Assembly (NCBI GenBank): GCA_020348445.1
Contig: CP070751.1
Coordinates: forward strand, 2,444,892-2,508,891
Reading direction: 5' to 3'
Source: Thermoplasmata archaeon
GTDB lineage: Archaea > Thermoplasmatota > Thermoplasmata > GCA-020350865
DNA: 64,000 bases
Positions 452 to 22,325 of the stretch are shown here, piece by piece. The position numbers were made by a program, and so were the translations under genes. How positions within the stretch are numbered: the first letter of the stretch is position 1; every line of letters starts with the position of its first letter. The notes beneath the pieces are model-generated. The model saw only the letters and a list, made by a program, of their open reading frames with translations. It had not been told where the DNA came from and made no database searches.

Positions 452-632
452 GTCACTTTAGAGAATCCGATATAAGAAGGCCGGTTTCTATAATAACCAT
501 ACGTTAGTGGGAACCATCTTAACCTGATTACATTACCTTCAGTAAAACAATATACCCCGCGATACTATTGGGATAAATTTATAATATGACTTATGAATAT
601 CTTCCGACATAATCCTTTGGGATGAGTCAAAG

Positions 633-2339
633 ATGAACAAAAAATTGTATGTGTTATCCATATCATTCATACTGATTCTGGGCACTTTTTCTTGTATTGA
701 AGTGGAAAATACAGACGGGTTCATGTTCCGAGGTGACTTGTACAGAAGTGGCGTATACGAATCAAAAGTGCCCAATAACAATACCCTTTTATGGAGCTTT
801 GATACAGGAATTTACCGGGTGCAGTCCTCTCCTGTTGTCGTAGATGGCAGGATTTTTTTTGGGAGTGACGATAACAACGTTTATTGCCTGGATGCTCTAA
901 CAGGAGATGAGATTTGGAACTTTTCAACAGAAGGAGCCGTGGGTTCCACACCAGCGGTTGTGGATGGAGTGGTTTATGTGGGATCCGCAGACAGGAACCT
1001 CTATGCAATAGATGCAGTTTCCAAGGAAAAGCTTTGGAATTATACCTATGCAAGCTCTCCTGCCCAAATTACGTCCTCCCCGGCAGTGGTAAACAACATG
1101 ATATTCTTTGCTTCCGATGACAACAATTTTTATGCTCTTAATATATCGAAAGCATCGACTCCCGAGTTGGAGTGGGTATTTCCAACTGGAAATGGTTTCC
1201 CCCCCAGTGAATATCAGTCAAGTCCAGCCGTCTTGTGGCCCTATGTATACTTTGGCTCAATAGATGGTAATCTATATTGTGTCTGGGCTAACAATGGGAC
1301 CCAGAAATGGGCCTTTGAAATGGAAGACGGCCTTGAAATCTACACGACCCCGACTATATACAATGGCTCTATATACATAGGAGGTGCTGATTATAAAATC
1401 AATGGTGCTTTATATTGTCTTGATGCCCAAACTGGGGAAGAAAAATGGAGGTTTCTCCCCCCTGGTGAGGGGCGCTTCTCAGAGGTTTACTCCTCTGCAG
1501 CAGTACATGACGACATCGTATTTATTCATGCTTGGCATAAGACACCTGGTCCAGAGGAAGAAAGAGGGACCGTGTTTGCGATTCGAGGGGATCTAAACGG
1601 TGATGGGAATATCACAAACAATGAGATCAAATGGAGTTTTATCACATGGGATGACGAGGGTGGATCGTCCCCAACCGTGGCAGATGGAAAGGTGCTCGTT
1701 GGATCTACAAATAAAAAATTGTATTGTATTGACGAATATACAGGGGAGGAGCTCTGGAATCTCACAACAGGTGGTCAAATCGTGGCCTCACCCACTGTCG
1801 CCTATGGAATTGTCTATATCACATCCGAGGACGGCACACTGTACGCCATAGGAGGAGATGAACCAGCCTATTTGGAGGTCGAAATCATCCCTGAGTTTCC
1901 ATCCATAAAATCCAACAGGGTGATGGGCATCTCATTTAATGTTACTTACAGAGGTTTTCCAATCGAAGGTGCGTTCATCAACTTCGAGGTCGATTTGGGC
2001 AATCTATCCCAGAGCGGAGCAAGCACATTCGAGGATGGCAGCCAGAGAATAAAATACAATGCCCCAGAGGTTTCTGAAAATACCACTGTTACAGTGCATG
2101 CCAAAGTCACTAAACCCGGATATCCCGAGGGAAACTCAACTGCTTCATTCGTAGTTGAGCCACCAACATCTTACAAACAGATTAAATCGAGCAGCATGTT
2201 CTCTCTATCCAAGTACTGGTTGTATCTTGTTGCTATATTTGTTCTCGTCGTGATAAATGTCGTTATCATGTATTATGCCAAAAGAAAAAAAAGTGATGAA
2301 GCAGGAAAATCTAAGGTCCAAGAAAATGTAGGGGAATAA
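633..2339 (+). CDS. Secreted PQQ-like (BamB-type repeat) beta-propeller with Ig-like stalk and C-terminal TM anchor
   Basis: N-terminal hydrophobic signal; repeated SSP.V.DG..F.GS.D..(L/V)Y(C/A)LD..TG...W blades; hydrophobic helix YWLYLVAIFVLVVINVVIMYY followed by a basic tail. Confidence 0.85.
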   Translation: MNKKLYVLSISFILILGTFSCIEVENTDGFMFRGDLYRSGVYESKVPNNNTLLWSFDTGIYRVQSSPVVVDGRIFFGSDDNNVYCLDALTGDEIWNFSTEGAVGSTPAVVDGVVYVGSADRNLYAIDAVSKEKLWNYTYASSPAQITSSPAVVNNMIFFASDDNNFYALNISKASTPELEWVFPTGNGFPPSEYQSSPAVLWPYVYFGSIDGNLYCVWANNGTQKWAFEMEDGLEIYTTPTIYNGSIYIGGADYKINGALYCLDAQTGEEKWRFLPPGEGRFSEVYSSAAVHDDIVFIHAWHKTPGPEEERGTVFAIRGDLNGDGNITNNEIKWSFITWDDEGGSSPTVADGKVLVGSTNKKLYCIDEYTGEELWNLTTGGQIVASPTVAYGIVYITSEDGTLYAIGGDEPAYLEVEIIPEFPSIKSNRVMGISFNVTYRGFPIEGAFINFEVDLGNLSQSGASTFEDGSQRIKYNAPEVSENTTVTVHAKVTKPGYPEGNSTASFVVEPPTSYKQIKSSSMFSLSKYWLYLVAIFVLVVINVVIMYYAKRKKSDEAGKSKVQENVGE

Positions 2340-2340
2340 A

Positions 2341-3564
2341 ATGAGTTTTATTGCAACAAAAACACAAGCCTTGCTTTTGGTAATTATAATATGCATAACC
2401 TTATTTCCGTCGGGGAATTCCAATGAAGCAATGGATGTTACCACCTTGAACCTTCTTTGGGAGAACAAAGAGGGGCACAACGCCACGCTGTGGTCTGTCA
2501 GGTGGTCACCCGATGACAGCATGATCTCAGCCACCTATTTTGACAACACAACCACGATATTCAACGCCCAAAACGGCTCCATTATAACGAAAATGGGGGC
2601 TCATCCGAAACCCCATGGAACCCGATGTGATGGTGAGCAAGATTGCGAAATTGAAGAGCATCTACCAACAAGATCCAGCGCCTGGTCCCCAGATGGCAAA
2701 TATCTGGCAACTGGAGGGGACAACAGGCTCATAATCATATATGCAAGCATAAACTGGTCTGTGGTAAAGATATTAGAGGGACATGAGCAAAGCGTCCTCA
2801 CCTTGGAGTGGTCTCCTGGGGGAACAATGATCGCATCCGGCTCTGGAACAGATAAGGTGGCCATTCACAATGAAGACAAAAAAGAGAATATAGTTAAGAT
2901 CTGGGATTTCTCCACCGGCTTGGTTATTGCTGAGCTCGAAGGACATCAGGATGGTGTTATGAACGTGAAATGGTCTCCCAACGGCTCCCAGATCGCCTCT
3001 GCATCAGATGATAAAAAAATTATGCTGTGGAGCACCTCCGACTGGACGAGAACCATGACCCTGGATGACCACGTCTTGGGTGTGCTTGATGTGGATTGGT
3101 CTCCAAATGGTACCTTTCTTGTGTCAGGAAGCAGAGATTACAAAGTCAGGTTGTGGGATGCCCAAACTGGTGAATCCATTGATAGATGGACAGAACCCAA
3201 CTGCATTCGTTCTGTTCATTGGCATCCAGATAAAGGGCTCATCGCAAATTCAGGCGTTGGGGAGACCATGCTTAAAATCCGCAATGCTACAACAGGCACA
3301 GTGATCAAGACATTTACAGAATCTGCCGATTCAAAAAGCGTGGTCATGTCCTCACGATGGTCACACGACGGATTGAAACTGGCTGCTGGGGCAGGTTTGG
3401 AGCACGCGTTGAGGGTATACTCCTTTGGTATATCAAGTGAAAAGGAGTCCAAAGAGATTCCATCGTGGGTTCCAGGCACCGTATTGTTCATGGCCATCAC
3501 CGCTATTGTTGTAGTTTTGATTATGATTCCAGTATTGGGAAAATTACAGGAGAGTGGAAGGTGA
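2341..3564 (+). CDS. Secreted WD40-repeat beta-propeller with C-terminal TM anchor
   Basis: Signal peptide; GH...V..V.WSPDG..LASGS.D...(K/R)IWD repeats; C-terminal TM helix; starts 1 nt after the previous stop codon. Confidence 0.9.
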   Translation: MSFIATKTQALLLVIIICITLFPSGNSNEAMDVTTLNLLWENKEGHNATLWSVRWSPDDSMISATYFDNTTTIFNAQNGSIITKMGAHPKPHGTRCDGEQDCEIEEHLPTRSSAWSPDGKYLATGGDNRLIIIYASINWSVVKILEGHEQSVLTLEWSPGGTMIASGSGTDKVAIHNEDKKENIVKIWDFSTGLVIAELEGHQDGVMNVKWSPNGSQIASASDDKKIMLWSTSDWTRTMTLDDHVLGVLDVDWSPNGTFLVSGSRDYKVRLWDAQTGESIDRWTEPNCIRSVHWHPDKGLIANSGVGETMLKIRNATTGTVIKTFTESADSKSVVMSSRWSHDGLKLAAGAGLEHALRVYSFGISSEKESKEIPSWVPGTVLFMAITAIVVVLIMIPVLGKLQESGR

Positions 3565-3565
3565 A

Positions 3566-4933
3566 ATGGTATTGAGCAACCTTATAAGAAGGGCGAGCGT
3601 AATTTTTCTTTCGTTGATTCTTCTTATGATGTTCTTTCCTTACACGTTAACCTCAAAAGCTGATATCGATTCCAATTATCTAGGAAACGGCCCTGGTAGG
3701 TTCAACTCATTGAAGGCCCAGGATATCGATTCAGACGGTAACGTGGAGGTCGTTTTCGGTAACTATGAAGGTTATCTCAACATAATCGAAAGTAGGGACG
3801 GCAGTTATTTTGAAAAATGGCGTTCTGACTCCTTGGGAACGAGGTTATGGGGTCTTTGTATTGCTGATTGTGATTCAGACGGCACAAATGAGATAATAGC
3901 AGGAAATGGCGAGGGGGAGTTCTATGTTTTTGATGCAGTATCAAACGAGTTAGAGTGGAAAAAGGAGGATCTAGGACGTGATGCCCATGGCATTGCTGTG
4001 GGCAACATAGACTCTGATGAAAATTTGGAGATAGTTGTGGGAACAGGCTATAAAACAGACATACCCTTGGGAAATGTGTATGTATTCGACGGTAAAACCC
4101 ATGAACTTGAGGCAGAATTGGGTCCCATTTCTTCAAGGCATCGCGGAGTTGCAATCGATGATGTGGATTTGGACGGTGTAAATGAAATAATCTTTGGAAG
4201 CGGAGTATCCTTGGGAGAGACCCCAGGTGAAGGTTACATTTACATATACGGTTTTGATGGCGAAGATTACATCCAGGAATGGAAAAGCGAGGATCTTGAT
4301 GGTGATGTCATAGGTCTTGTGATCTACGATCTTGAGGGCGATGGTACTTTAGAAATTATCGCAGGAAACGGCTACAGGTACAACCAGGGTTATTGCTTTA
4401 TATTCAGATATGTAGGAGAAGGAAGCGATTCAGGTTCCGGAACTCCTGCCATTTATCAACAGGTATGGGAAAGCGAGGATATAGGACCCAAGGCTTATGG
4501 ACTGGATGTTGGGGATATCGACGATGATGGTATAACAGAGATCGTTGTGGGCAACCAACCTGGCTATATTTGGATCTTCGATGCAAATACCCACGAGGTT
4601 GAGTGGAAAAGTCCGCTTTTAGGCACCGATATTCTAGGCATAGAAATCGCGGATGTTGATTTGGATGGTGAGGTCGAGATCATCGCCTCCCAGGGGGGCT
4701 ACATTGGAAAAGCTGACTGGACATCAGCCTATACTGCCCCGCATATATACATAATAAATGGTAGAACCCATGAGATCGAGACCAAATTGGGCGAGTACGA
4801 TTATTTGGAAATCCTATTTACGGTGGTGGTGATAGTACTTATTGTAATTACCTTGGTTCACCTCAATCGGGTGCTAAGGATCAAAAAAACAATCCGGAAA
4901 ACCAAAGTTGATACAAAAAGAGGAATCAAATGA
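3566..4933 (+). CDS. Secreted FG-GAP/VCBS-repeat protein with C-terminal TM anchor
   Basis: Repeated D.D.DG..EI(I/V).G Ca-binding motifs; signal peptide and C-terminal TM helix. ATG 3566 follows a GGAAGGTGA RBS (the ORF track starts at 3554). Confidence 0.85.
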   Translation: MVLSNLIRRASVIFLSLILLMMFFPYTLTSKADIDSNYLGNGPGRFNSLKAQDIDSDGNVEVVFGNYEGYLNIIESRDGSYFEKWRSDSLGTRLWGLCIADCDSDGTNEIIAGNGEGEFYVFDAVSNELEWKKEDLGRDAHGIAVGNIDSDENLEIVVGTGYKTDIPLGNVYVFDGKTHELEAELGPISSRHRGVAIDDVDLDGVNEIIFGSGVSLGETPGEGYIYIYGFDGEDYIQEWKSEDLDGDVIGLVIYDLEGDGTLEIIAGNGYRYNQGYCFIFRYVGEGSDSGSGTPAIYQQVWESEDIGPKAYGLDVGDIDDDGITEIVVGNQPGYIWIFDANTHEVEWKSPLLGTDILGIEIADVDLDGEVEIIASQGGYIGKADWTSAYTAPHIYIINGRTHEIETKLGEYDYLEILFTVVVIVLIVITLVHLNRVLRIKKTIRKTKVDTKRGIK

Positions 4934-4943
4934 GGTATAAAAG

Positions 4944-5696
4944 ATGCTACTGGAACTTGTGGTTGCGGCATTAATCGGGATATCCTTTGGAAATGCATGG
5001 GCCTGCATTCTCATGTCCTTTGGAACCTCGGCAGAGGAACGGAGTGTGGGTAAGTGGTTCATTGCAGGCAGGTTCTTAGGATTGATTCTTCTTGGATCTG
5101 TGATTTCCCTATTGAGGTTTGCAGCCCAGGACGTGATGCCCATTGTTATTTTGATATTCGGAGTATCAACTCTCCTTTTCGGTTTGTTGATTTTAATTCG
5201 GCATTTGATACAAAGCCGATATTATTTAGAGGATAAAAAAGGCATTTCTGATAATGTTCTGTTGTCTTTAATTTCGTTTTTCATGGTTATACCCAAAGAC
5301 AGAAAATGCAAAGGCAATCCAAATGGACCCCATGGGCACAAAAACAAAGGCAGTCATCATAGAAAACAGGGACAATGTAAAAGACACAAGAACTTCACAG
5401 AAAAATCTGGATTTGCACTTGGTGTGCTCAGGGGAGCGACCCCCTGTGCCAAGGTTATAGTATTGACTCCTCTTCTGGTGGCCTTTGGCTTCCCAGGTTC
5501 TCTGCCAATTATACTTGTCTATGCCTCTGCCTCCACGATCTATCCTGTAATTGGATATCTTTCAGCTGATGTACTTTCAAAATTCGATAAATATCAGTTA
5601 CATTTCAAAATACTAGGTGCATTCATACTCATTGCCATGGGTTTGTATTTCATAGTCAAGGTTGTTATGTGGAACTCCACACACATTGGAATGTAA
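4944..5696 (+). CDS. Integral membrane protein of the DsbD_2/UreH/RcnA-like type with a His/Cys-rich loop
   Basis: Several hydrophobic helices; loop CKGNPNGPHGHKNKGSHHRKQGQCKRH followed by G.LRGATPC, resembling the G..PC motif of this superfamily. Confidence 0.6.
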   Translation: MLLELVVAALIGISFGNAWACILMSFGTSAEERSVGKWFIAGRFLGLILLGSVISLLRFAAQDVMPIVILIFGVSTLLFGLLILIRHLIQSRYYLEDKKGISDNVLLSLISFFMVIPKDRKCKGNPNGPHGHKNKGSHHRKQGQCKRHKNFTEKSGFALGVLRGATPCAKVIVLTPLLVAFGFPGSLPIILVYASASTIYPVIGYLSADVLSKFDKYQLHFKILGAFILIAMGLYFIVKVVMWNSTHIGM

Positions 5697-5700
5697 TTTG

Positions 5701-6672
5701 GTGATAAAAGAAAGTGTGAATCATGTGAGAAGACCCAAGATAAGTGAGTGGCGTTTAATCGTGAACATAGCCTGGCTTTTCGTGATAAACAGCGTGCTCT
5801 TCGGAGTTTTTTATTTCAGCACACACCCTTTGACTAAGAACATATTCTGGCCTAATTTGTCAACAAGGTTCATCGTGAACAATCCCACAACTTCATTTTT
5901 ATACCAGATCCAGTCACGGTTTGCTAGTGGACAGGAGACCTATTATGTGGATCTGCTTGTTCCTTTCATGATATTTATTTTATTGGTTGTGATTTTAGGA
6001 AGGGTCTGGTGCGGGTGGCTTTGCCCCATAGGTTTTATACAGAACATTCTGCTTAGGATTAGAAAAGCACTGGGTATTCCATACAAGGATGTGTCCCCCA
6101 AGGCCACAATGGTGCTCAACCAGATGGGGTATGTACTGATATTTTTGATAGCCTTTTTGTCATTTGCTGTGGGAGTAACTTTCCTGGGAATGCACAATTT
6201 TTGGACAAAATCCGAGCTCCCCTTCGAGAGTGTGGCACCGCCGCGACCAATTTGGATCTTCCTTCAGCAGCTCGTGGGTCTGGAATCCTGGGATTCTGTC
6301 ATACCTCTCTCTTCTATAATCGTGGCGATCTTGGTGATCGTTCTATCCTTTAAAATCAGGCATTTCTGGTGCAGAATATGCCCTGCAGGGGCCCTCATGT
6401 CTCTTTTAAACCGCAGGGCCCTTGTGAGCATCCAAAAGGATGGCTCAAAATGCACAAAGTGCAGAATCTGTCTTAGAGCCTGCCCAATGGACATCGAGGA
6501 AATATACGAGGAGAAGGAAAAGGACAACGTGACCCACGAGACCTGTATCCACTGTTACAGATGCGTGGAGCTGTGTCCCGAAGATGGCTGCTTGAGTGTG
6601 ACATTCATGAACAAGACTATTGCTACTTCGAAGTATCCAAGGGCGCCAAAGCAAAAAGAGGTGGTTGGATGA
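5701..6672 (+). CDS. Membrane 4Fe-4S protein, NapH/MauN family
   Basis: CGWLCPIG and WCRICPAG motifs plus two ferredoxin motifs (CTKCRICLRACP, CIHCYRCVELCP) and TM helices. Exact start is uncertain (5701 or 5716). Confidence 0.85.
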   Translation: MIKESVNHVRRPKISEWRLIVNIAWLFVINSVLFGVFYFSTHPLTKNIFWPNLSTRFIVNNPTTSFLYQIQSRFASGQETYYVDLLVPFMIFILLVVILGRVWCGWLCPIGFIQNILLRIRKALGIPYKDVSPKATMVLNQMGYVLIFLIAFLSFAVGVTFLGMHNFWTKSELPFESVAPPRPIWIFLQQLVGLESWDSVIPLSSIIVAILVIVLSFKIRHFWCRICPAGALMSLLNRRALVSIQKDGSKCTKCRICLRACPMDIEEIYEEKEKDNVTHETCIHCYRCVELCPEDGCLSVTFMNKTIATSKYPRAPKQKEVVG

Positions 6673-8048
6673 ATTTAATTTCAAAAAAGAAAGGGGAAAA
6701 GAACGTACAGGACGAGAAACTTAATCCATTATCGAGCCTAAAAGCCTCTGAGAAAAGGTATGTAAGTGACAAGATTCTGAACAATTTGGGAATCAAAAAG
6801 GAGCAGACCCTCTCAGCTATGAAGAAATTTATAGAGGACGAAATCAAGAAACTACAATCCATGTCCCAAAGAGCACAGTCCATGGCCTATTTTGACGATA
6901 TTGCCAGGTATTTCGGAACAAGGGCCGAGGAAGTTGCGAAGTTCAAGGATGCAGGAGGACATGTGGTTGGTTCTCTTTGCATGTTCGTGCCAAACGAAAT
7001 TATTGCAGCTTCAGGAGCGCTCCCCTTAAGACTGGGCAGCGGCTTTCATGAAACAGCAGGTCCTGCAAATGTGATTTTGGGTGATGCAGGATTATGTCCT
7101 TTGGTTAAATCCACATTGGGCATGAGAATGGCTGCATGCTCTCCTTATTTTGAGATGTGTGATTTGCTTGTAGCCCCGACTCCCTGCGATGCCAAATTGA
7201 AGCTGGGGGAAATACTCCAGGATTTCGTACCTGTATTGATGCTTAATCTCCCTCGGATAAAGAGCGGAGCTGTGAACCGCAGGCAGTGGGCAGAGGAGAT
7301 CGGGATTCTCATGGACAAACTGGAGCTCCTCACAGGTAAAAAGATTAAAAGAAAGGACATGAAAGTAAGTATAGAAAAGTACCAGAGGGCCTATTCTGCT
7401 TACAGGGAACTTATGAATATAAGACGCGAGGCTGATGTGCTCTGGGGGAGAGACGCTCTTTTGGTAGCCCAATTATCATATTATGACGATATCGAAAGGT
7501 GGACACAGAACGTGCATAAGCTGGTTGCTGAGTTAAAACAGATGAAAGAGGAGGGAAAAACAATAATTTCGGATGAAGCTCCAAGAATCATGCTTGCTGG
7601 CTCCCCAATCATCTGGCCAAACTGGAAAATCCCAGATATAATCGAGGAAAGTGATGCACTGATTGTGGCAGATGAGCTATGCTCTGCAACAAGGGCACTT
7701 TCAAATCCAGTTGTTGTTGATGAGAACACAAAAAGAGGCATGATAGATGCAGTTATCGAGCGCTATCTATTTCCATGTACATGTCCTTGCTTTTCCCCAA
7801 ATCTTGAAAGGGATGACAACCTCTTAAACAGGATCAGGGACTATAAAGTGCAAGGTGTTATATTCCATGTTTTGAAGGGGTGCCATCTAAATGCACTTGA
7901 TGCAACAAGAATCAAAGGGATTTTAGAGGAAGAGGGAATTCCAATGTTCACTATAGAAAGCGAGTATGTTATGGGCGACTATCAGCAGATAAAGCTTAGG
8001 CTTGAAGCGTTCTTGGAGATGGTGAGGGCGCAGATTGACATAATTTAA
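6669..8048 (+). CDS. Double-cubane cluster protein-like reductase (2-hydroxyacyl-CoA dehydratase fold)
   Basis: Cys motifs SLCMF, LCPLVKS, ACSPYF, TPCDAKLK, ELCSA, CTCPCFSPN and GCHL match the DCCP pattern as I recall it (LCPLIKS, TTCDGKK, CSCFTPN, FCH). ATG overlaps the upstream stop (ATGA) behind GAGGTG. Confidence 0.75.
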   Translation: MNLISKKKGEKNVQDEKLNPLSSLKASEKRYVSDKILNNLGIKKEQTLSAMKKFIEDEIKKLQSMSQRAQSMAYFDDIARYFGTRAEEVAKFKDAGGHVVGSLCMFVPNEIIAASGALPLRLGSGFHETAGPANVILGDAGLCPLVKSTLGMRMAACSPYFEMCDLLVAPTPCDAKLKLGEILQDFVPVLMLNLPRIKSGAVNRRQWAEEIGILMDKLELLTGKKIKRKDMKVSIEKYQRAYSAYRELMNIRREADVLWGRDALLVAQLSYYDDIERWTQNVHKLVAELKQMKEEGKTIISDEAPRIMLAGSPIIWPNWKIPDIIEESDALIVADELCSATRALSNPVVVDENTKRGMIDAVIERYLFPCTCPCFSPNLERDDNLLNRIRDYKVQGVIFHVLKGCHLNALDATRIKGILEEEGIPMFTIESEYVMGDYQQIKLRLEAFLEMVRAQIDII

Positions 8049-8142
8049 AATATTGTATATCGTGTTATGCATAATGAGAAGTAAGTAATACTCCCTTAAA
8101 ATAAGGGGATAATAAATATTGAGGTACGGGATTGTATTAAAG

Positions 8143-9198
8143 ATGAAAAAACATATTGCGTGTTTAATAGTGATTATACTAATATCAACCGTTTTCGGGA
8201 ATTACCCTCAGGTCAATGCAGATCCAGGCACGATATCAGTAATTGGAACCCTCCCCTTACCCATCTACAGAGCCTCTTCAATTTGGGATGGGGAAAATGT
8301 ATACCTCTTTGGAGGAAAGGACGGAACCAAGAGTCTGAATACCATAGTACGCTACTCTCCAACCACCAACGATGCTAATATTCTTGATGTTGTGCTACCC
8401 ACAGTAAAGGATGGATCGTCGGCTATTTGGGACGGCCAGCACGCATACATATTTGGCGGAAACTCAGAAGGGATAAGCACAAAAGAGATTCTTAGATTCG
8501 ATACCTTATCCGAGGATTTAACGATGATGCAGGCCGAGCTTCCCTGGGGACTGCAAGGTGCAGGAGCATTTTGGACAGGTCAATATGCATATATTTTTGG
8601 CGGTCATGATGAGAATCGGAATTTCCATAAAGAGATAATCAGGTATGACCCAAAAGAGGATAACATAACGATTACCGATATTCTTCTTCCCTCGGAAAGG
8701 GCCGGAGCCTCTTTGATTTGGAATGGAGAGTTCGCATATATCTTTGGTGGGAGATTCATGAGCGTCATACGGGATGAGATATTACGGTTTAATCCTAATG
8801 ACGGTACTTTAATTAGTATGAATGCGGTTCTACCTGAGCCGAGATATCATACATCTGCTGCATGGGACAGTTGCTGTGCCTACATCTTTGGAGGCCGAAA
8901 TGGTTCCTCTGTTTTGGATGATATCCTAATTTATAATCCAATTACTGATTCTCTTTTCGTGGAGAAAACCAAGTTCACCAGTGGTAGAGAGCGCACATCT
9001 GCAATGTGGATTGGGGATCATGCTTATATTTTTGGGGGGGAGTCTGGTGCCAATTATTTGGATGAGATAGTGATTTATAATCCTGAGACTCGTGATGAGG
9101 ATCAAATCACAGAACCGTTTTTGGTTTTCCAATTGATAGCCATAGTGGCTGCGATGATCATTTTAATCTGGTTTGTAGGGAGAAGAAAAAAGGAATAA
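8143..9198 (+). CDS. Secreted Kelch-repeat beta-propeller with C-terminal TM anchor
   Basis: Six repeats of W.G..AYIFGG.......I..(Y/F).P; signal peptide from ATG 8143; TM helix plus RRKKE tail. Confidence 0.9.
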   Translation: MKKHIACLIVIILISTVFGNYPQVNADPGTISVIGTLPLPIYRASSIWDGENVYLFGGKDGTKSLNTIVRYSPTTNDANILDVVLPTVKDGSSAIWDGQHAYIFGGNSEGISTKEILRFDTLSEDLTMMQAELPWGLQGAGAFWTGQYAYIFGGHDENRNFHKEIIRYDPKEDNITITDILLPSERAGASLIWNGEFAYIFGGRFMSVIRDEILRFNPNDGTLISMNAVLPEPRYHTSAAWDSCCAYIFGGRNGSSVLDDILIYNPITDSLFVEKTKFTSGRERTSAMWIGDHAYIFGGESGANYLDEIVIYNPETRDEDQITEPFLVFQLIAIVAAMIILIWFVGRRKKE

Positions 9199-9375
9199 TA
9201 CACAAAGAATCGGTTTAACAATTCTTAAATACAATGAGGGTTATATCCTTTTTGTGCATTAATATAATGAACATATATTTATTTGAACCTTTACAATATA
9301 AAGCCCAGAATCAGATATAATAAAACACATATCAAATGAATCGAGGGTAAATCTAATATTCGAGGAGGAAATGAT

Positions 9376-12300
9376 ATGCTTGGAGGAACTAAAGTGTCTA
9401 AAAGAAGATTTTTTTCTTTCTCAGCAAGTACAATTCTTTTGATGAGTGCTATGCTGATTGGAATTTCATTTGAAATGCCAAACACCAGTGCGGGAACTGC
9501 AAACCACGATGTGGGAGAACTTCAAATTATTTTTCTCTCAGATTTTGGAAGGATCCTACGGCCGCTTCAATGGCCAAATCCCGGTACCTCCCATACCGTA
9601 AGTAACCAAGGAACTGGGTTTTTAGGATTGGTGGTGGATCAGGCCAATTATGATCATACTCCTGGGTCAGTGGATATTGCTGATTGTTACAAATTCGGTT
9701 CCAATAACTACTGGAACCAAGATGACTTCACACCAATCTCGTTAATAAACATGACAATTGATGATGGAACAACCCAAAAAAGTATTGCTTCATTTCAGAA
9801 TACAGGAACCACCCAGGATCCAAACGACATCCTGATCAATCAAACATGTTGGACAGTAAAGGACAAGGATTGGGCAATATTACAATGGGATGTGATCAAC
9901 ATTAAAAGCCCAGCTGCTGATATCACCGATTTTTGCCTAGGTCTGGAGATTGATATTTCGCAATCTGATTGGGGAGTGGATCCATCATATGGTCTAGGTG
10001 GGGATAGCGGTGACGACATCGACGGTTTTGATGTGACTGAAAATGTCTACTGGGCTTCGGATGATGGTGGAACAACCTTGGGATTTGGCTCGGTATTTGC
10101 TTGGGATCCCATCACACATTACTTTTCAAAGGACTATCACCCCGGAGATTATAATGAATACAAAACATATTGGGAAAATGAGACTTGGTTGTACAACAGA
10201 ATTCGTGCTCCAAATAGTGTTGAGGGAGCTTCACCAGGAAACAGAACATCCACTGTAGGATGGAATGGGAATACGATACCAGCTGGGACATCAAGAACCT
10301 TCACATTGGTGATTGCATTAAACAGCACCAAAAGTAGTATGATAACAGCAATAAAGGATGCTCGATACTACTACCACAACAACATAACAGGTTTTCTTAT
10401 CACAGAGTTCTCAGATTCTGCAGGATCGCATCAAATCGAGGTTTACAATAACGGTCGCGAAGCCACTCCTGCTTCAAATTTAGAATTCTCGGTAGATGGG
10501 GGTAGTACATTCTTAACTGGAGTCTGGGACAAGGACCCGATCCCAACCTATGAACACGCGGTCATCACTGTCACTGGCGGTGGAACGATCCATGCAGAGG
10601 GCGATACCATCAGCCTTTACGAAAATTCTGAGTTGGTTGATTTGGTGGCTTTTGGGCAGGAAGGTGTGGCACCTGATCCTTTGCCCGGTGAATCAACTGA
10701 AAGGCATTATAATTCATCTTCATCAAGCTATACAGATGACTGGCTACACCAGGCCCCAACTGGAGATACATTTGGCGCTTACAACAATGTTGGAATTGTG
10801 ATCAGGTCGCCTGAGGTTGTGCTCAACAGGGTGATGTTCAATCCATCTGTACCATCTGAGGGATATGTGGAGTTGATGTTCCTAGGTTTGGGGAGCCTTA
10901 ATATTTCAGACTATGAGATCATCTGCAATGACAGGTTCACAATTCCCACAGGAATCGTCCTCAGTAACACAAATAGGTTTTATGTATTCACGTACTCTGA
11001 CATGCCTACATTTTTCACAAATATGAATTCTGCAGGGGATAACGCCTATCTCTATGACAGAAATGACAATCTCCTTGATATGGTAGGATGGAACTCCTCG
11101 CATACACAAGGTTATTTCATGTCCCGAAGCCCTGATGGTACCGGAACCTATCAGGGTTTCAATGATAAAACCTCGGAGGCTGCGGGTTGGGTTTTTGACC
11201 AGCAACCTGTTGTTCTGCTGACTGAGTTCTATATGGATAGCAGTTCAGCTCAGATTGAAATTTACAATCCAAGGGGTGGCGAAAAATTGCTTGATGCCAG
11301 ATGGAGCCTGGAAAGCAGTGTAAACGGCCCCGGGGCACTTCCAGGAACCTGGGCGTTGGGTACAATACCTGCCAATGGAGGATACGATTACTTCACCATG
11401 AGTCCGGGTCCCACACCTGGAGATGAAGGTGACACCATCACTTTATATTACGATCCTGGCTCAGGTCAAATTATAATGGATCAAGTTGCCTTTGGAACAC
11501 ATGGGAAGGCACCAGACCCCCTTGCTGCAGAATCAACGTCCCGATACTGGAACAGCACCTCATTGAGTTGCCATGACGAGTGGACAAGGGAAGACACCCC
11601 GACTTTTGGTGCTCAAAACGATGTCCCGCCAATTGATTACAACTCGAAATTAATATTGAACGAAATACTGTTTAATCCTATTAATCCTGATGACTTTTTT
11701 GTTGAACTCTACCTCATATCTGGCACTCTCGACATATCGGTATATAGAATTGTGTGTGATTCTGAATTCGTTATCCCTAGTGGAACAATATTGAGTTCAT
11801 CCAATCCTTTTTTCTATCTGATTTATTCTATGGACTCTCCCTTCTTCGATAACATGGATTCGTCCGGAGATAATGTTTATCTTTACGATCCCAATGGTCG
11901 TCTTCTTGATATGGCAGGTTGGAGCTCACAGCACGAGCAAGGTAAATCAATGCGCAGGATTCCAGATGGAAATGGAACAAGGGATGGATTTGATGATCCA
12001 AGTTCAATTGCCGCAGGCTGGGTCTTTGATTGTATACCAACATCCCTTACGCTGCCGCCAGGACCGCCAAGGGATCTTCAGGCAAATCTTGTGACAGATG
12101 CAAAGGACGTATTTATTTCTTGGAACGCATCTTTAGATGACGGTCAGGGAGAAAACGATGTTGAAGGATATACAGTTTATAAGTCTAACACGGGAGTTAA
12201 CGGAACCTACGAATTTGCGGCCTGGATTTCTGCAACAGGGTCTGCATCCTATAATTGGACTGACAAGGATGCAGGAGATGGGGATTGGAACGATTATTTC

Positions 12301-12855
12301 TATATCGTCAGAGCCAACGACACATCTGATTCTGAGGAGCAAAACACAGATAAGGTCGGCAAATTTGTCAATTATTTAGTGAAGAACTGGAATCTGATAT
12401 CTGTGCCGTTGATTCAAGTGAACACATCGATGGAGTATGTGCTGCAAACAATAGAAGGGAATTACATCACAATCCAAGGGTACCATGCAGGCAAATCAAG
12501 ACCCTGGCTTCACTGGCACAAGAACAAACCAAAATATTTCAATGATGACATAGAAATAAATCATAAAGAGGGATACTACATCAGAATGACCAATCCAGAC
12601 TATCTAATCGTGGCAGGGAGGGTACCATCTGAAACTCAGATACCCTTAAAAACAGGATGGAATTTAATCGGTTATCCGTGTCTTATAAACCAAACTCGGG
12701 ATGATGCATTATCTTCGATTGATGGAAAATACAACATGGTGGAATACTATGATCCTATAAAGGGTAAGGAAGTGAGGCTCGATCCTGGGGATTATATGAA
12801 ACCCGGACTTGGATATTGGATTCATGCAACCGAGGACTGCGTTCTTATCATATAA
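9376..12855 (+). CDS. Secreted lamin-tail-domain (LTD) repeat protein with FN3 and the two-repeat C-terminal domain
   Basis: LITEF/LNEI...(I/V)E(V/L)YN...D.V.(F/W)G...S..R LTD-like motifs arranged as an internally duplicated pair; FN3-like ISWNAS..YTVYKS..YFYIVRAN; C-terminal domain from 12382. Confidence 0.75.
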   Translation: MLGGTKVSKRRFFSFSASTILLMSAMLIGISFEMPNTSAGTANHDVGELQIIFLSDFGRILRPLQWPNPGTSHTVSNQGTGFLGLVVDQANYDHTPGSVDIADCYKFGSNNYWNQDDFTPISLINMTIDDGTTQKSIASFQNTGTTQDPNDILINQTCWTVKDKDWAILQWDVINIKSPAADITDFCLGLEIDISQSDWGVDPSYGLGGDSGDDIDGFDVTENVYWASDDGGTTLGFGSVFAWDPITHYFSKDYHPGDYNEYKTYWENETWLYNRIRAPNSVEGASPGNRTSTVGWNGNTIPAGTSRTFTLVIALNSTKSSMITAIKDARYYYHNNITGFLITEFSDSAGSHQIEVYNNGREATPASNLEFSVDGGSTFLTGVWDKDPIPTYEHAVITVTGGGTIHAEGDTISLYENSELVDLVAFGQEGVAPDPLPGESTERHYNSSSSSYTDDWLHQAPTGDTFGAYNNVGIVIRSPEVVLNRVMFNPSVPSEGYVELMFLGLGSLNISDYEIICNDRFTIPTGIVLSNTNRFYVFTYSDMPTFFTNMNSAGDNAYLYDRNDNLLDMVGWNSSHTQGYFMSRSPDGTGTYQGFNDKTSEAAGWVFDQQPVVLLTEFYMDSSSAQIEIYNPRGGEKLLDARWSLESSVNGPGALPGTWALGTIPANGGYDYFTMSPGPTPGDEGDTITLYYDPGSGQIIMDQVAFGTHGKAPDPLAAESTSRYWNSTSLSCHDEWTREDTPTFGAQNDVPPIDYNSKLILNEILFNPINPDDFFVELYLISGTLDISVYRIVCDSEFVIPSGTILSSSNPFFYLIYSMDSPFFDNMDSSGDNVYLYDPNGRLLDMAGWSSQHEQGKSMRRIPDGNGTRDGFDDPSSIAAGWVFDCIPTSLTLPPGPPRDLQANLVTDAKDVFISWNASLDDGQGENDVEGYTVYKSNTGVNGTYEFAAWISATGSASYNWTDKDAGDGDWNDYFYIVRANDTSDSEEQNTDKVGKFVNYLVKNWNLISVPLIQVNTSMEYVLQTIEGNYITIQGYHAGKSRPWLHWHKNKPKYFNDDIEINHKEGYYIRMTNPDYLIVAGRVPSETQIPLKTGWNLIGYPCLINQTRDDALSSIDGKYNMVEYYDPIKGKEVRLDPGDYMKPGLGYWIHATEDCVLII

Positions 12856-12893
12856 CCATGCATCTAATGGCCATTTTTAGTTAGATAGCCCTC

Positions 12894-12909
12894 CAACAAA
12901 TTATTTATA
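12894..12909 (+). promoter_or_regulatory. BRE/TATA-like promoter element CAACAAATTATTTATA
   Basis: Identical 16-mer also at 15117-15132; both copies lie upstream of PQQ-propeller genes. Confidence 0.55.
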
Positions 12910-12965
12910 CCACCCAGTTCATACTAATTGTATCAAAACAAGGAAATATGGAGTGGGAGTTTGTT

Positions 12966-15083
12966 ATGAAAGTCCGATGTCTTCAGTTACTTGTCCATTT
13001 AGTTGTCTGGCTATTGATTTTGAATGGCTTGATCTTTTTAGATGCACCCCAAAGCAAGATTTATGATTATCCTGAGGATAACATGGAAAAAGAACCTTCT
13101 TCTATCCATAACTCCGGTTTGGGAAGATCTACAAGAGCAGGCAATGACTGGCCTATGTACCGAGGGGACCTTTTTCATTCTGGTTTTGGCACATCCTCTA
13201 TTCCATCAAATGACACCCCATTATGGTCAAATACCACAGGTAGCGGAGACGGATACGGTTCACCTGCAGTGGCCGACGGCAGGGTTTTTGCCGGTTCTGC
13301 AGATGGATATCTTTACTGTTTTGATTTGTATACTGGGGAGAGATTATGGAGAACGTTTTTATCTTCAGGTGATTTTGGTGTATGCGGCTCTCCTGCTGTC
13401 GCAAACGATCATGTAGTTGTTTTCTGTTCAGGTGATGATACTGTTTACAGATTAAGAGTATCGGACGGTAGCGAAGATTGGAGTTACTCTCCGGGTAGCG
13501 GTGCCTATGGAGGCTCTTCACCAGCAATCAGTAACGGTAGAATTTACGTTGGTTCAGGTAATAGATATCTCTATTGTTTGGATGAAATTAGTGGTAATAT
13601 GATTTGGTCATACAGAACCGATGTGGGACCTTGGAGAAATTACGGAATACAATCCTCTCCAGCAGTGGCAAATGGAAGGGTGTTTGTGGGTGCCTGTGAT
13701 ACGTATCTCTACTGCTTTAATGAATCCCAGCCCTCTGCCCCAAATGCAGAATATTTTTGGAGGACCGATCTTTATGATGCCGTATTTGCATCGCCAGCAG
13801 TAGCAAACGGGAGGGTCTTTTGTGGCTCTGGATACTATGCTTACGGTGAAGGCGATAACTCACATACGATGTTCTGTCTGGATGAACTCACAGGCGAAGT
13901 TATATGGAGTTATGTAACAGGAAGTGATATCCTGTCCTCACCTGCCATTGCCTATGGAAATTGTTATTTCACGTCCACGGATGGCGAGTTGTATTGTGTG
14001 GATGCAGAAGATTCAGGACCTACACCTTCATTTGTTTGGAGCGAGACTGTAGGAGACTCGTGGTCCTCTCCGGCAGTTGCCGATGGTAAAGTGGTGGTTG
14101 GTTCCCGTGGCACCAATTCCATATATTGTTTCGATGCTCTTTCTGGTGCTTTAATATGGAGCCGTAATCTTGGCAATGACATATACAGTTCTCCTGCAAT
14201 TTCCGATGGCAAGGTTGTAGTTGGTGTTAGAGGCTCCCCTGAATCAGTTTACTGCTTTGGAAACTTAACAAGTCCTCCTTCACCCCCTGCACCACCCACC
14301 AATTTACAGGCCCAGCTTGTGGGAAATGGAAACGATGTAATGGTCTTTTGGGATGCTTCAATAGATGACGGAAGCGGTGATGATAATGTTTTGGGTTATA
14401 CAGTATACAAATCAAGTGCAGGGGTAAACGGCCCATATGATTTCGAGGCATGGGTTTTGGCAACAGATTCTCCAACATATGATTGGACTGATGTTGGTGC
14501 AGGGGATGGTGATCTAAACGATTACTTCTACATAGTGAGGGCTAATAACACAGATAACAACGAGGAGAATAACGTAAGAAAAGTGGGTAAAGTGGTAAAC
14601 CAACAAGCAAAAGGATGGAATCTCATATCTGTTCCCTTAATTCAAGCCAGCACCTCAAGAAATTATTCACTTCAAACCATAGAAGGTAATTCTTCGGCTG
14701 TACAATCGTATCATGCAGGAAAATCAAAACCATGGCTTCACTGGAATGATAAAAAACCCGCTCATTTAAATGATGTCAACGATATTACTAATGAAAATGG
14801 ATATTATATCTACATGGTGAATACCGATTATCTTGTGACCGCAGGAAAAGTGCCAACCACAACCTCGATATCCCTTTATCATGGATGGAACATGGTGGGT
14901 TACCCTTCTTTGGAAATCAGGACAAGAAATGATGCACTTTCCTCAATTTCGGCCTCGTACAATAGGGTGATTTTCTTGGATACCCAAAGTGGAAGGGAAG
15001 TATTTCTTGGCCCAAGTGATTTAATGAGTCCTGGGTATGGATATTGGATCCATGTAACTGAGAACTGCGAACTTGTCTTGTAA
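12966..15083 (+). CDS. Secreted PQQ-like beta-propeller with FN3 and the two-repeat C-terminal domain
   Basis: DWPMYRGD start of the propeller; SSPA(V/I)A.GRV blades; FN3 plus C-terminal domain (from 14610) homologous to the upstream gene. ATG 12966 follows GGAGTGGGAG (the ORF track starts at 12948). Confidence 0.85.
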   Translation: MKVRCLQLLVHLVVWLLILNGLIFLDAPQSKIYDYPEDNMEKEPSSIHNSGLGRSTRAGNDWPMYRGDLFHSGFGTSSIPSNDTPLWSNTTGSGDGYGSPAVADGRVFAGSADGYLYCFDLYTGERLWRTFLSSGDFGVCGSPAVANDHVVVFCSGDDTVYRLRVSDGSEDWSYSPGSGAYGGSSPAISNGRIYVGSGNRYLYCLDEISGNMIWSYRTDVGPWRNYGIQSSPAVANGRVFVGACDTYLYCFNESQPSAPNAEYFWRTDLYDAVFASPAVANGRVFCGSGYYAYGEGDNSHTMFCLDELTGEVIWSYVTGSDILSSPAIAYGNCYFTSTDGELYCVDAEDSGPTPSFVWSETVGDSWSSPAVADGKVVVGSRGTNSIYCFDALSGALIWSRNLGNDIYSSPAISDGKVVVGVRGSPESVYCFGNLTSPPSPPAPPTNLQAQLVGNGNDVMVFWDASIDDGSGDDNVLGYTVYKSSAGVNGPYDFEAWVLATDSPTYDWTDVGAGDGDLNDYFYIVRANNTDNNEENNVRKVGKVVNQQAKGWNLISVPLIQASTSRNYSLQTIEGNSSAVQSYHAGKSKPWLHWNDKKPAHLNDVNDITNENGYYIYMVNTDYLVTAGKVPTTTSISLYHGWNMVGYPSLEIRTRNDALSSISASYNRVIFLDTQSGREVFLGPSDLMSPGYGYWIHVTENCELVL

Positions 15084-15116
15084 ATAACCTTTACACTAAA
15101 GCCTTTAAATAAAAAT

Positions 15117-15132
15117 CAACAAATTATTTATA
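15117..15132 (+). promoter_or_regulatory. BRE/TATA-like promoter element CAACAAATTATTTATA (second copy)
   Basis: Exact match to 12894-12909. Confidence 0.55.
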
Positions 15133-15180
15133 TCATTCAAATAATACCATCTTAAAGTAGACAAGGAAGTAATTTAGTGG

Positions 15181-18100
15181 GTGAGTGAGATGAAAGTTCA
15201 TGTTTCTAGGACATCTGCTGTAGTTGTCATTATGATGTTAATTATTACAAGTTCTTGGACAATGGTTCTTCAACCCTCAGAAAATATTATTAATGAATTA
15301 TCTGAAGAGGAATCCCATTTGGATCCTGATCCAAGTGTTAACAGACCAACAAGAGCAGGGACACCCTGGCCGATGCACCGTAATAACCCTATTCACACAG
15401 CCTACACACCAGACTCTGGACCTATAACAGATGAGGTGCTGTGGGTTAATTATCCGCTTGGTAAGACTTTGGGCTCCCCTGCGGTGGTAGACGATAAAGT
15501 ATTTATTGGAAGCGGAAACGGAATGAACGCATTTTATATAGAAAACGGCTCACTAGCATGGCGTACTCCAACCTATAATGTGGTTCCTGGGGGCTATGGG
15601 CTCACTTCTGCACCTGCGTATTCCAATGGTTTTATTTACTTTGGTGGAGATGGTTTTTACTGTCTTTATGAAAACAATGGTACAGTCAAATGGTTTGTTG
15701 ATACTCCCCATCAAAACTGGGGAGATGGCACTCCCACTGTTGCCAATGGCAAGGTCTTTATTCCAGGAAGTGATAGAAAATTGTACTGTCTCGATGAGGA
15801 TGACGGAACTATAATTTGGACCTTTCAAACTGGTTCCGGTGGAAGCGCTAATTATGGATTGTACGCTGCTCCTGCCGTGGTAAACGGTTTTGTTTACCTG
15901 GCGGCCTGCGATTGGATCCTATATCAGATCAACGAGACCCAACCCACGATTACCGCTTCTGCATACAACACCTTCACAATGAACTATGCCTCCTATTCCA
16001 CACCCGTTGTAGTAAATAATCGAGTATTTGTAGGATGTGGATATACTGGGACAAGTACTAATAATCGCTTCTACTGCCTTGATGCAAACGATCTTTCTTT
16101 TATCTGGGAGTTTTATCCGGGCTCCTCAACCAGTTTCTTTTCCTCAGCAGGTTATTATAACAACAGGGTGTACATCGGTTCTCTGGATGGCAATCTCTAT
16201 TGCCTCGATGCAACCAGCCCCTCAGCCAATGTTCTCTGGCAATACTACATAGGTCCCACTTGGTGCTCCCCTGCCATAACAAATGACAGGCTGTATATTG
16301 GTTCAAGATCTAATGTCTTCTACTGCTTCAATCTTTCTCAAACCTCTGGATCTGAGGAGTATTACTGGATATTCAATGCCTTGGATCAAGTAAATTCCTC
16401 ACCTGCTGTGATGGATGGCAGAGTCTATGTGGGTTTTGGCTGGGAAGATAGTTCCAATGGAGGAGTTTACTGCTTCGGACCTCCACCAGTACCTCCCTCT
16501 GTGGACAGCATTCAAATCGAGGATCAGCCCGGCGGAATAGGCAACCCAATTCTCGATCAAACCATTGACGTGGGGGTACAAATTACGGGGTACGCAGCAG
16601 CATACAATGGAACTGATTACCTGTATGACATTGAGGTGGAATGGATGGTCGCCAATGGAAGCGGAGCAAATGCATCAACCTCACCCACGAATTCGGTGGA
16701 TAGTTCTGATTTCTACTCTGGTTTTTTCGGGGGAACAGCAACATGGACTGCAGATGATGGACTTGGCCATATTTACCAGGTGGAGTTCACGATAAGAGAT
16801 CCCGCTGTTGAGTACATCAGTATTGTGGATACTGAGAACATTGGTTCATCCGAGATTATGGATCAAATAGTGGATGTTGGGTTCACAAAAAAAGGCTATG
16901 CCGCATCATTTAATATAACAACCGGATATATGGGAGATGTAATAGTTAATTGGAGTGTTCAAAATACCACTTCCTCGGCCTTCACAAGTCCATCCCAGGC
17001 CACGAACTCAACATTCAATGCAAGCCTTTTAGGCGGGATAGCCACATGGATTGCCGATGACGGGAAAGGGCATACAGACGAGGTCGAGTTCACGATAAGA
17101 GACCCTACTGTGGACGACATCTTGATTGTTGACACCGAAGGAATTGGCTCCTCTGAGATCACAGGAAAAACCGTGGATGTTGGATATACTATTGTAGGTT
17201 ATGCTGCAGGCTTTAACGATACAGCAGGATATATCGGAGATGTTCCAGTTAACTGGTATGTGGTAAACACGAGCGGAGCCGAAGGTTTTACCTCCCCGAC
17301 TTCGGGGCCAAATTCAATTCTTAACGTTAGCTTTAAAAATGGCACTGTAGAATGGATTGCAGATTATGGGGGCGGTCATACCGATTCTGTTGTATTTTCG
17401 GTGCGAAAGCCAACTGTTGATTATATCATAATCAGAACAGGCTCGAAAGGAACAGGAAGCTGGGTGGGGGATTCCACATATATCTTCGGGACCACTGATA
17501 CATTCTATGCAGGGGGTTACAATAATACAGCAGGCTGGATAGAAGATGTGGATGCCGAATGGGAAAGTGACAATCAGCCTGTGGGAAATGTTAGTATGGG
17601 TCCCTCCAACTCCACAACCTTCTCTGCAATAAACAACGGAACCTGCAATATCACTGCAACTTACGATAAATTTTCGAATACGACAGGTGTTATATCTGTC
17701 ATCAACTACACAATCGATTACATTATAATCAGGGATTCACCAGGTGGAGAAGGTTCAGTTGTGGAAGATATGAATTTCGCAGTTGGAGGAACTGCGACTT
17801 TCTATGCCGCTGCCTACAATGAATCATCTGGCTATCTTGGAGATGTAGGAGTGGAATGGGAATCCAGTAATGAAACCATCGCAATCGTAACGAGCCCTGG
17901 GATCTCAACACTTTTTACTGCTCAATTTATTGGCGGGGAATGCAATGTCACTGCAACATACGATTCATTAATTTCCAATGTAACTGGAACGCTAACCGTT
18001 TTAGATGCAGAGATAAATTATATTCTGATTACTAATGCACCAAATGGGGATGAAATTTCCACTGTTTATTTGAATGTGAACGAGACCATAACAGTTTATG

Positions 18101-19899: not shown

Positions 19900-19997
19900 G
19901 TATTTAGCTTTCCCGTTCCTGTAACAGGGTGTATAAATATGATACCAACATCGAATAATTTATATTATACCCTCTTATTTTTAAATTGTCAAGGTGA

Positions 19998-22226: not shown

Positions 22227-22325
22227 TAGCCATATAAATATCTTTATTCAAGAATTGTTCTAAAATATTTAAGTAATCCATACTTTATCTTACCATACCA
22301 AGAAAGATAACAGTGAGGGGTCAAC

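Follow-up and report, generated by a model that had tools for sequence, protein, structure and literature searches.

The window analysed here is a 64,000-nt stretch of contig CP070751.1 (assembly GCA_020348445.1, positions 2,444,892–2,508,891 of the forward strand) from a Thermoplasmata archaeon whose genome is a single contig of 5.16 Mb with a marker-based completeness estimate of 82%. Between positions 633 and 8048, open reading frame (ORF) calls place six head-to-tail genes on the plus strand, here called P1 to P6, which encode three propeller proteins (P1–P3), a DsbD_2-type membrane protein (P4), a NapH-like iron-sulfur membrane protein (P5) and a protein resembling the double-cubane cluster protein (DCCP; P6). 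Successive gaps from P1 through P5 are 1, 1, 10 and 1–28 nt, and the P5–P6 junction is an ATGA overlap, as a preliminary description of this DNA had noted when it pointed to six same-strand genes with tight spacing. For P3 we used the ATG at 3566 (the listed GTG at 3554 overlaps P2), and the start of P5 is uncertain (5698, 5701, 5716 or 5725).

The arrangement is widely kept among relatives, whose genomes are deposited as metagenome-assembled genomes (MAGs) named 'Thermoplasmata archaeon' or 'Methanomassiliicoccales archaeon'. A pattern scan built on the P4 alignment, with one genome per species, returned 18 loci, all from Thermoplasmata or other Thermoplasmatota. Ten carry complete P1–P6 in the same order (L022, L024 and L027–L034), four are partial contigs consistent with it, one (L026, described below) retains P4–P6 and a remnant of P3, and three hold only a distant stand-alone homologue of P4. 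The order is also preserved in metagenome contigs L042 and L043, giving a total of at least 12 other Thermoplasmata genomes or contigs. Outside the genus, identity is 36–39% for P1, 44–53% for P2, 50–61% for P3, 33–41% for P4, 42–45% for P5 and 48–55% for P6, and the P1–P2–P3–P4 junctions are maintained across families as gaps of 1–10 nt or overlaps. Because the same order recurs in other genera and families at 33–61% identity, the P1–P6 arrangement is not due to chance. Furthermore, among 61 sampled relatives the same 9 genomes, drawn from three families, have orthologues of both P3 and P4, and the remaining 52 have neither. The preliminary description had proposed a gene-neighbourhood comparison for its grouping of these genes, and the propellers are indeed syntenic with the NapH-like and DCCP-like pair in related genomes.

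P6 is the member of the set with the clearest structural relatives. Its closest solved counterparts are the DCCP structures 6ENO (E = 1.7e-69) and 7YYL (E = 7.4e-70), matched over residues 66–453, with BzdN (7e-22) and HadC (3e-19) far behind. A seven-cysteine motif has been published for the [8Fe-9S] cluster of this family (PMC7317905), and residues C104, C143, C173, C338, C372 and C405 of P6, invariant in 14 orthologues, fit the spacing of its six ligands. The seventh, non-ligand cysteine (Cys94 of the Carboxydothermus hydrogenoformans protein, DCCP-Ch) corresponds to Gly123/Ser124 in the window protein and is Cys in 13 of 13 orthologues; class III DCCPs likewise do without it (PMC7317905). 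On these sequence features P6 is a DCCP-type protein with six cluster cysteines and a predicted [8Fe-9S] cluster, although its score on the double-cubane model NF040772 (325 bits) falls below the cut-off of 350. A hydropathy scan detects no transmembrane (TM) segment in P6.

Relatives of P6 are named benzoyl-CoA reductase or hydroxyacyl-CoA dehydratase subunits by JGI and NCBI. Close relatives include fusions of about 750 residues that join a BcrAD_BadFG activase to an HGD-D domain roughly 50% identical to P6, and a bacterial relative from [Eubacterium] cellulosolvens is 52% identical. DCCP itself requires an ATP-driven reductase (PMC9351452), and its natural role, unexplained since 2018, was stated to be unknown in 2022 (PMC9351452) and again in 2025 (PMC11971306). 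In BzdN, by comparison, the double-cubane cluster serves as an electron relay and store (PMC11971306).

P5 carries Pfam Fer4_5 and two 4Fe-4S domains. It has four TM segments, with C117-x3-C121-P following TM2 and C237-x2-C240-P following TM4, and ends in a basic, cytoplasmic domain with two CxxCxxCxxxCP motifs. The hydropathy scan places all cysteine motifs and the iron-sulfur domain on the basic, cytoplasmic side, and all 12 cysteines are invariant among 15 orthologues. Neighbouring genes include no NapG, NapA or other known periplasmic client.

P4 required a family-wide comparison. The family comprises 96 clusters, from Thermoplasmata MAGs where an organism is named and otherwise from unnamed metagenomes, and JGI repeatedly calls its members CcdA. 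Among 32 members, 3 match DsbD_2 (best 7e-9) and 8 match TauE, with further matches to MntP and Cad; the DsbD_2 and TauE families both belong to the LysE superfamily. Cys21 in TM1 is conserved in at least 90% of sequences, and Cys168, in an RGATPC168 motif of TM4, is invariant. An AlphaFold2 (AF2) model with a predicted local distance difference test score (pLDDT) of 77 adopts a 3+3 helix arrangement, and its top Foldseek match in the PDB is CcdA (5VKV), although weak (E = 0.23); a P4 profile compared with PDB sequences gave nothing meaningful. Proteins that occupy the same position in other gene cassettes, described below, do pass PF13386 at 68–73 bits, and P4 aligns with these positional equivalents with both TM cysteines retained. 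In addition, an alignment of P4 with DsbD_2 sequences (A5) matches the host's own true DsbD_2 gene with an hhalign probability of 97%. Judged by these alignments, P4 is a real but diverged member of the DsbD_2/LysE superfamily. It has a large basic cytoplasmic loop. The His-rich character mentioned in the preliminary description lies in a loop that varies among orthologues and is not conserved. Distant homologues of P4 in other Thermoplasmatota (L035, L037 and L038) stand alone amid unrelated genes and offer no functional hint.

By hydropathy scan, each of the three propeller proteins starts with a hydrophobic signal and ends in a TM segment followed by a short basic tail, an arrangement that places the propellers outside the cell. 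P1 matches PF13360 at 2e-44, with its TM segment at residues 528–546, and P2 matches WD40 at 4e-44. P2 also contains two conserved motifs, a TRCDGxxxC...H loop and PNC(V/I)RSV, in which C96 and C288 never vary and 12 of 13 sequences have C102; beyond these three cysteines, nothing resembling a metal site was found in P2. P3 is the best conserved of the three (50–61% identity outside the genus). Its blades bear conserved Asp/Glu motifs, with the full DxDxD...E pattern in five of seven, which look like ordinary calcium sites. No substrate-binding motif was identified in any of P1–P3. Thus the family assignments made at the outset hold for all six proteins: Pfam and hydropathy agree on TM-anchored PQQ-like, WD40 and FG-GAP propellers, and P4, P5 and P6 keep their DsbD_2-type, NapH-like and DCCP-like identities, P4 as a diverged member and P5 and P6 with scores below model cut-offs.

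The association between P5-like and P6-like proteins extends well beyond Thermoplasmata propeller loci. A metagenome scan with the P6-family alignment returned 80 loci, on contigs that carry no taxonomy, and their neighbouring genes were labelled with purpose-built hidden Markov models (HMMs). Of the 30 loci with upstream sequence that reach 480 bits or more on the P6 HMM, 25 have a NapH-like gene as the immediate upstream neighbour (a 26th has such a gene by eye), as against 5 of 32 below 480 bits. An activase gene directly follows the P6 relative in 28 of 33 loci, and a surface protein, either CARDB-type or a propeller, is encoded within 2.5 kb upstream in 16 of the 21 NapH–DCCP loci whose upstream sequence is long enough.

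A P6-family tree (a quick maximum-likelihood search, midpoint-rooted) resolves a propeller-linked clade (support 97), a CARDB-linked clade (100), a clade of P6 paralogues and a classical DCCP-plus-activase clade, none of whose 28 members has NapH. The NapH label changes 6 times on this tree compared with 23 in shuffles, and is therefore clade-specific. Two other genes were seen near CARDB-type cassettes. A CDF cation-efflux transporter bearing a ZT_dimer domain and an Oxidored_molyb-domain protein each recur near CARDB–DsbD_2–NapH–DCCP–activase sets at four loci (coordinates include L056:2708–4114 and L065:12862–13677).

Relatives also reveal that P1–P6 can be part of something larger. In L027–L034 the gene immediately before P1, in the same orientation, encodes an FtsX-type permease of 1217–1234 residues, and an FtsX-type permease gene also holds this position in L043. 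Downstream of P6 in L030–L034 and L045 come, in turn, a NifB-like gene and genes for a small Cys-rich protein with three TM segments (s159) and a large PQQ propeller; the NifB-like gene begins 4 nt after P6 in L030 and is adjacent to it in six loci. With an FtsX-like permease, a NifB-like protein, a mini membrane protein rich in Cys and one more propeller, the operon of these relatives reaches about ten genes. In the window, the counterparts of these four genes form a minus-strand run at 25330–32006, 17 kb from P6, and the added parts, taken together with the activase pair described below, are scattered within about 50 kb in the host genome. The term 'six-gene operon' used in the preliminary description therefore stands for a conserved six-gene unit and falls short of the operon seen in relatives, which has about ten genes or has activase genes after P6. 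Genes adjacent to the permease include no ABC ATPase partner, and an Atlas search with s159 found unnamed clusters and no named family.

The NifB-like protein has 279 residues and contains the HPC, CX3CX2C, TxTxN and CxxCRxDAxG motifs. It scores 272.5 bits on TIGR01290 over model positions 4–281, which is the core only, and does not reach the cut-off of 343.65. Neither NifDK/EN-family (PF00148) nor MCR alpha genes were matched in the 5.16-Mb contig, for which the completeness estimate is 82%. Among the 61 relatives, a NifB-like gene is present in 6 of 6 members of an MCR-bearing methanogenic family, in 8 of 9 genomes that bear the P1–P6 cluster and in 0 of 46 others. In the MCR-bearing family such a gene comes as no surprise, since L-cluster-like clusters are used by the MCR activation complex (PMC12176620). 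As the cluster is found in three lineages only, this co-occurrence is a lead rather than a statistic.

Activases are encoded elsewhere in the host. In L041–L043 two activase genes directly follow P6, and because the two genes are different, a heterodimeric activase is implied. Their best matches in the host genome (44% and 61%) lie in the same order at contig positions 2428164–2429731, 22 kb upstream of P6, and in all five cluster-bearing genomes tested, activase pairs lie at other genomic positions. The region about 8–22 kb upstream of the window holds this pair, a DsbD_2 gene and a second redox module. The DsbD_2 gene is a true family member (85 bits on PF13386), on the minus strand and divergent from the tandem ActA/ActB pair (L039:2342–4741). 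The second module, on the plus strand at contig positions 2432220–2439714 (L039:7221–14715), encodes a NosD-like β-helix protein, a 359-residue membrane protein, a NapH-like paralogue 30% identical to P5, a 644-residue protein and a DCCP paralogue that is 38% identical to P6 and scores 422 bits on NF040772. The 644-residue protein has no assigned family, and counterparts of it precede DCCP genes in metagenome loci L076 and L078. The host contig also contains two four-gene sets of two HGD-D and two activase genes (BCR/HAD-like; 1386431–1390605 and 2936831–2941027) and a classical DCCP-plus-activase pair (3100301–3102368); the P5 HMM finds no NapH-like neighbour at any of these three places.

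Between P6 and the minus-strand run, positions 8119–25253 (17 kb) hold a same-strand array of seven anchored surface proteins, among them a Kelch protein, an LTD protein, three PQQ proteins with FN3/TSP3 tails and a 975-residue FG-GAP protein. The Kelch gene is the sole array member kept beside P6, and within the genus only. Beyond the FtsX gene, positions 34659–39350 encode a pyridine-nucleotide-disulfide oxidoreductase, a DUF6125 protein, a DtxR-type/FeoA fusion regulator and a 644-residue ORF. Upstream of P1, we infer from the letters alone that the TATA-like TTTATAATA is a candidate P1 promoter. A sigma-70 promoter and terminator scan of the window, a model that does not apply to archaea, gave matches at shuffled expectation, and scans of the window for tRNA and Rfam families found none.

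Table 1 Genes and candidate signals of the locus, in window coordinates
Feature	Position	Strand	Basis
Candidate archaeal promoter, TATA-like TTTATAATA	578–586	+	Read from sequence, 47–55 nt before the P1 start codon
P1, PQQ/BamB-like β-propeller with stalk domain, type-I membrane protein	633–2339	+	Pfam PF13360, hydropathy, synteny
P2, WD40 propeller, type-I anchored	2341–3564	+	Pfam WD40
P3, seven-bladed FG-GAP propeller, type-I anchored	3566–4933	+	Pfam FG-GAP_3
P4, diverged DsbD_2/CcdA-like membrane protein	4944–5696	+	Alignments of family members, Foldseek, hhalign
P5, NapH-like 4-TM/2x[4Fe-4S] protein	5698–6672 (start uncertain)	+	Fer4_5, NapH models below cut-off
P6, DCCP-like HGD-D protein, cytoplasmic	6669–8048	+	PDB matches, six ligand Cys
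s159, small 3-TM protein with conserved CxxC-x(6-8)-C	25330–25809	-	Downstream of NifB-like gene here and in relatives
NifB-like radical-SAM core	25903–26742	-	TIGR01290, motifs
Fourth PQQ-like propeller, type-I anchored, in FtsX/NifB-like operon	26827–28266	-	Pfam, hydropathy
FtsX/MacB-type duplicated permease, 1234 residues	28302–32006	-	Pfam FtsX twice; NCBIfam ADOP and LolCE matches weak

We propose that P1–P6 may be the Thermoplasmata-specific form of a wider cassette, composed of a surface protein, an optional DsbD_2 protein, a NapH-like protein, a double-cubane protein and two activases, which could act as an envelope-spanning, outward redox machine. We give this proposal as a whole a probability of roughly 0.4. 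Its architecture we hold with high confidence, while the outward direction of electron flow is close to an even call; the sequence comparisons show the parts, their topology, the conserved order and the activase partnership, and from these we infer function and direction. According to the proposal, the heterodimeric activase would use ATP to load low-potential electrons onto the P6 double-cubane cluster, which would act as a store or relay as in BzdN and hand them to the ferredoxin-like domain of P5. P5 and the transmembrane cysteine pair of P4 would then move reducing power across the membrane in the manner of NosR or CcdA/DsbD. The three-propeller complex would receive it, with the TRCDGxxxC loop of P2 and C288 as a candidate site, and would hold an extracellular substrate or metal centre that needs reduction. 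The NifB-like protein, the small Cys-rich membrane protein and the FtsX-type permease would be accessories for cluster maturation and mechanical work at the surface.

In characterized DsbD and CcdA proteins, reducing power travels outward, and the clients of NapH, NosR and RdhC are enzymes outside the cytoplasm. These precedents, together with the relay function of the BzdN cluster (PMC11971306), are the reason that we favour outward flow.

Several observations weigh against an outward relay built from these parts. Because passage through [4Fe-4S] clusters and thiols costs low potential, such a relay looks wasteful unless it is tightly coupled, and isolated DCCP is a catalyst with substrate channels (PMC7317905). 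The candidate acceptor site is poorly modelled: the AF2 model of P2 has a mean pLDDT of 81.5, with the conserved Cys loop at residues 88–106 below 50. The window P4 has no Pfam match, PF13386 and PF02683 included, and only 10 of the 21 NapH–DCCP loci, or about half, have a DsbD_2-type gene immediately upstream. P5 scores 86.8 bits against TIGR02163 (NapH/MauN; cut-off 213) and 88.5 against PRK09477 (cut-off 234). No longer protein that contains P5, for example fused to P6 or to a flavin domain, was found at E ≤ 1e-10, which is weak evidence. The activases are not in the window operon. Finally, one complete 1.99-Mb chromosome (CP070767; L026) retains P4–P6 intact after loss of P1 and P2. It has no P2 orthologue anywhere, and its P3 remnant adjoins an inserted minus-strand gene of 1092 residues; its sister genome L027 has the full set.

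An inward course, the direction taken in the preliminary description, is nearly as likely as an outward relay. On a scheme of this kind, which we consider possible if somewhat doubtful, the propellers would bind a scarce or thiophilic extracellular substrate, P4 would import it and P6, in the cytoplasm, would reduce it with ATP-boosted electrons. The substrate would be a metal, metalloid, organometal or small unsaturated molecule, for which P4 offers a Cys-lined path, and P5 would be a membrane electron donor fed by quinol or another carrier, following the logic of MerP–MerT–MerA. DCCP does catalytically reduce small molecules (PMC7317905, PMC9351452). Both TM cysteines of P4 are conserved and its relatives match transporter families (TauE in 8 of 32, MntP and Cad); the surface module varies over a constant core, as would be expected of substrate binders; and a CDF cation transporter recurs near CARDB-type cassettes. 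NapH is an established quinol dehydrogenase, which suits the donor role. Yet the characterized DsbD/CcdA relatives of P4 move electrons outward rather than substrates, and members of the LysE superfamily are mostly exporters. Import through a DsbD_2-type protein also fits poorly with its absence from half of the cassettes, and neither the propellers, which lack an identified substrate-binding motif, nor the gene context yields a candidate substrate.

The proposed outward relay must also be set against accounts in which P1–P6 do something else together, or nothing together. The cluster might build, insert or keep reduced a metal or metal-sulfur centre in an extracellular propeller, with P5 in the role of NosR, the FtsX-type permease in that of NosDFY, and the NifB-like protein and P6 supplying or processing a complex iron-sulfur cluster. 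The centre of NosZ, itself a propeller, depends on NosR and NosDFY, and the NosD-like β-helix protein of the paralogous module, the NifB-like and permease genes of the ancestral operon and the conserved Cys and His of P2 are all in keeping with such a function. We nevertheless judge it improbable, given that P2 showed no sign of a metal site beyond three cysteines, that the P3 motifs resemble ordinary calcium sites, that CARDB proteins stand in for propellers in other cassettes and that no ABC ATPase gene is adjacent. A little less probable still is that the genes are mere neighbours, with P4–P6 a self-contained membrane-docked reductase and P1–P3 ordinary adhesins or S-layer-type proteins. 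Unrelated surface proteins crowd the region 8119–25253 and its flanks, one genome keeps P4–P6 without P1 and P2, and many NapH–DCCP cassettes have no propellers. This account is countered by the order and 1–10-nt gaps or overlaps of P1–P4, kept across families at 33–61% identity, by the confinement of P3 orthologues to P4-bearing genomes among the 61 relatives, and by other cassettes that place a different surface protein at the same position (16 of 21 loci).

Two further readings concern single proteins. That P6 is a subunit of a benzoyl-CoA reductase or 2-hydroxyacyl-CoA dehydratase is suggested by the JGI and NCBI names of its relatives and by its membership of the HGD-D family. We rejected this reading, which we regard as scarcely credible, on the grounds of a lone HGD-D gene and a six-Cys double-cubane pattern rather than a three-Cys one; the match to DCCP (1e-69) far exceeds those to BzdN (7e-22) and HadC (3e-19), and the partners are membrane proteins, not genes of CoA-ester metabolism. 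Such annotation can mislead metabolic reconstructions of sediment archaea. The NifB-like protein, for its part, might build a fused or carbide-bearing eight-iron cluster for P6 or another protein of the operon. Its adjacency to P6, the co-occurrence pattern and the failure to find NifDK/EN or MCR genes allow this reading, which we consider unlikely on balance. If true, NifB chemistry would gain a third class of client beside nitrogenases and the MCR activation complex, and would do so in archaea that lack both.

In the library searched, we found no paper that describes this gene set, in agreement with the statement in the preliminary description that no such system was known. In searches of the literature, the system did not come up for NapH together with double-cubane, HGD-D or activase proteins, for the propeller trio or for NifB in Thermoplasmata, and no paper was found that links DCCP to NapH-like, DsbD_2 or surface proteins; Haft's SAO preprint ties DCCPs to a different, selenoprotein locus. 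DCCPs are capable of some of the hardest reductions in biology (PMC9351452, PMC11971306). Throughout an entire branch of the family, the DCCP gene is accompanied by genes for a NapH-like protein, for surface proteins and, in many cases, for a DsbD_2-type membrane protein with two cysteines; members of this branch would not be free cytoplasmic enzymes. The Thermoplasmata version is the richest form, with three conserved propellers, an FtsX-type permease and an orphan NifB. The conserved cluster therefore provides a testable clue to the natural role of the double-cubane family.

Among described systems, the DCCP/DCCP-R pair of C. hydrogenoformans is the nearest to P6, which aligns with this DCCP over 387–388 residues (E of about 1e-69), keeps the six cluster cysteines and is partnered in sister lineages by ATP-dependent activases of the same family. 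P6 differs in that the window protein scores 325 rather than 350 bits and lacks the seventh cysteine, in having two distinct activase genes, remote here, and in its tree position in a clade apart from the NapH-free DCCP-plus-activase group. Moreover, the described pair is without NapH-like, DsbD_2-like or surface-protein partners. A second precedent for the cluster is the class I benzoyl-CoA reductase BzdNOPQ, in which an HGD-D protein with an [8Fe-9S] cluster acts as a relay or store fed by a heterodimeric ATP-dependent module (PMC11971306); the P6 locus lacks a BzdO-type catalytic subunit and a CoA-ester context. The NifB-like protein of the window shares the core motifs of NifB, but as a core only that scores below the cut-off. 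The known clients of NifB, the nitrogenase family and MCR, were not found in the host genome, and the gene is linked to the DCCP cluster instead.

On the membrane side, P5 resembles NapH, NosH and the C-terminal module of NosR in its four TM segments, its cysteine motifs after TM2 and TM4 and its two cytoplasmic [4Fe-4S] sites. It departs from them in a second motif that is CX2CP rather than CX3CP, in having no periplasmic FMN domain and no adjacent NapG/NapA or NosZ, and in its translational coupling to a DCCP gene. P4 resembles CcdA/DsbD and PF13386 proteins in its predicted 3+3 helices, the TM1 cysteine and the cysteine of the TPC motif in TM4, and is set apart by the lack of a Pfam match or a thioredoxin-like partner and by its large basic cytoplasmic loop. 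The MerP–MerT–MerA system, for which no homology is expected, offers an analogy for the layout as a whole, with a binder outside, a Cys-pair membrane protein and a cytoplasmic reductase. By this comparison, the reductase side of P6 would be distinguished by being ATP-driven and based on iron-sulfur chemistry.

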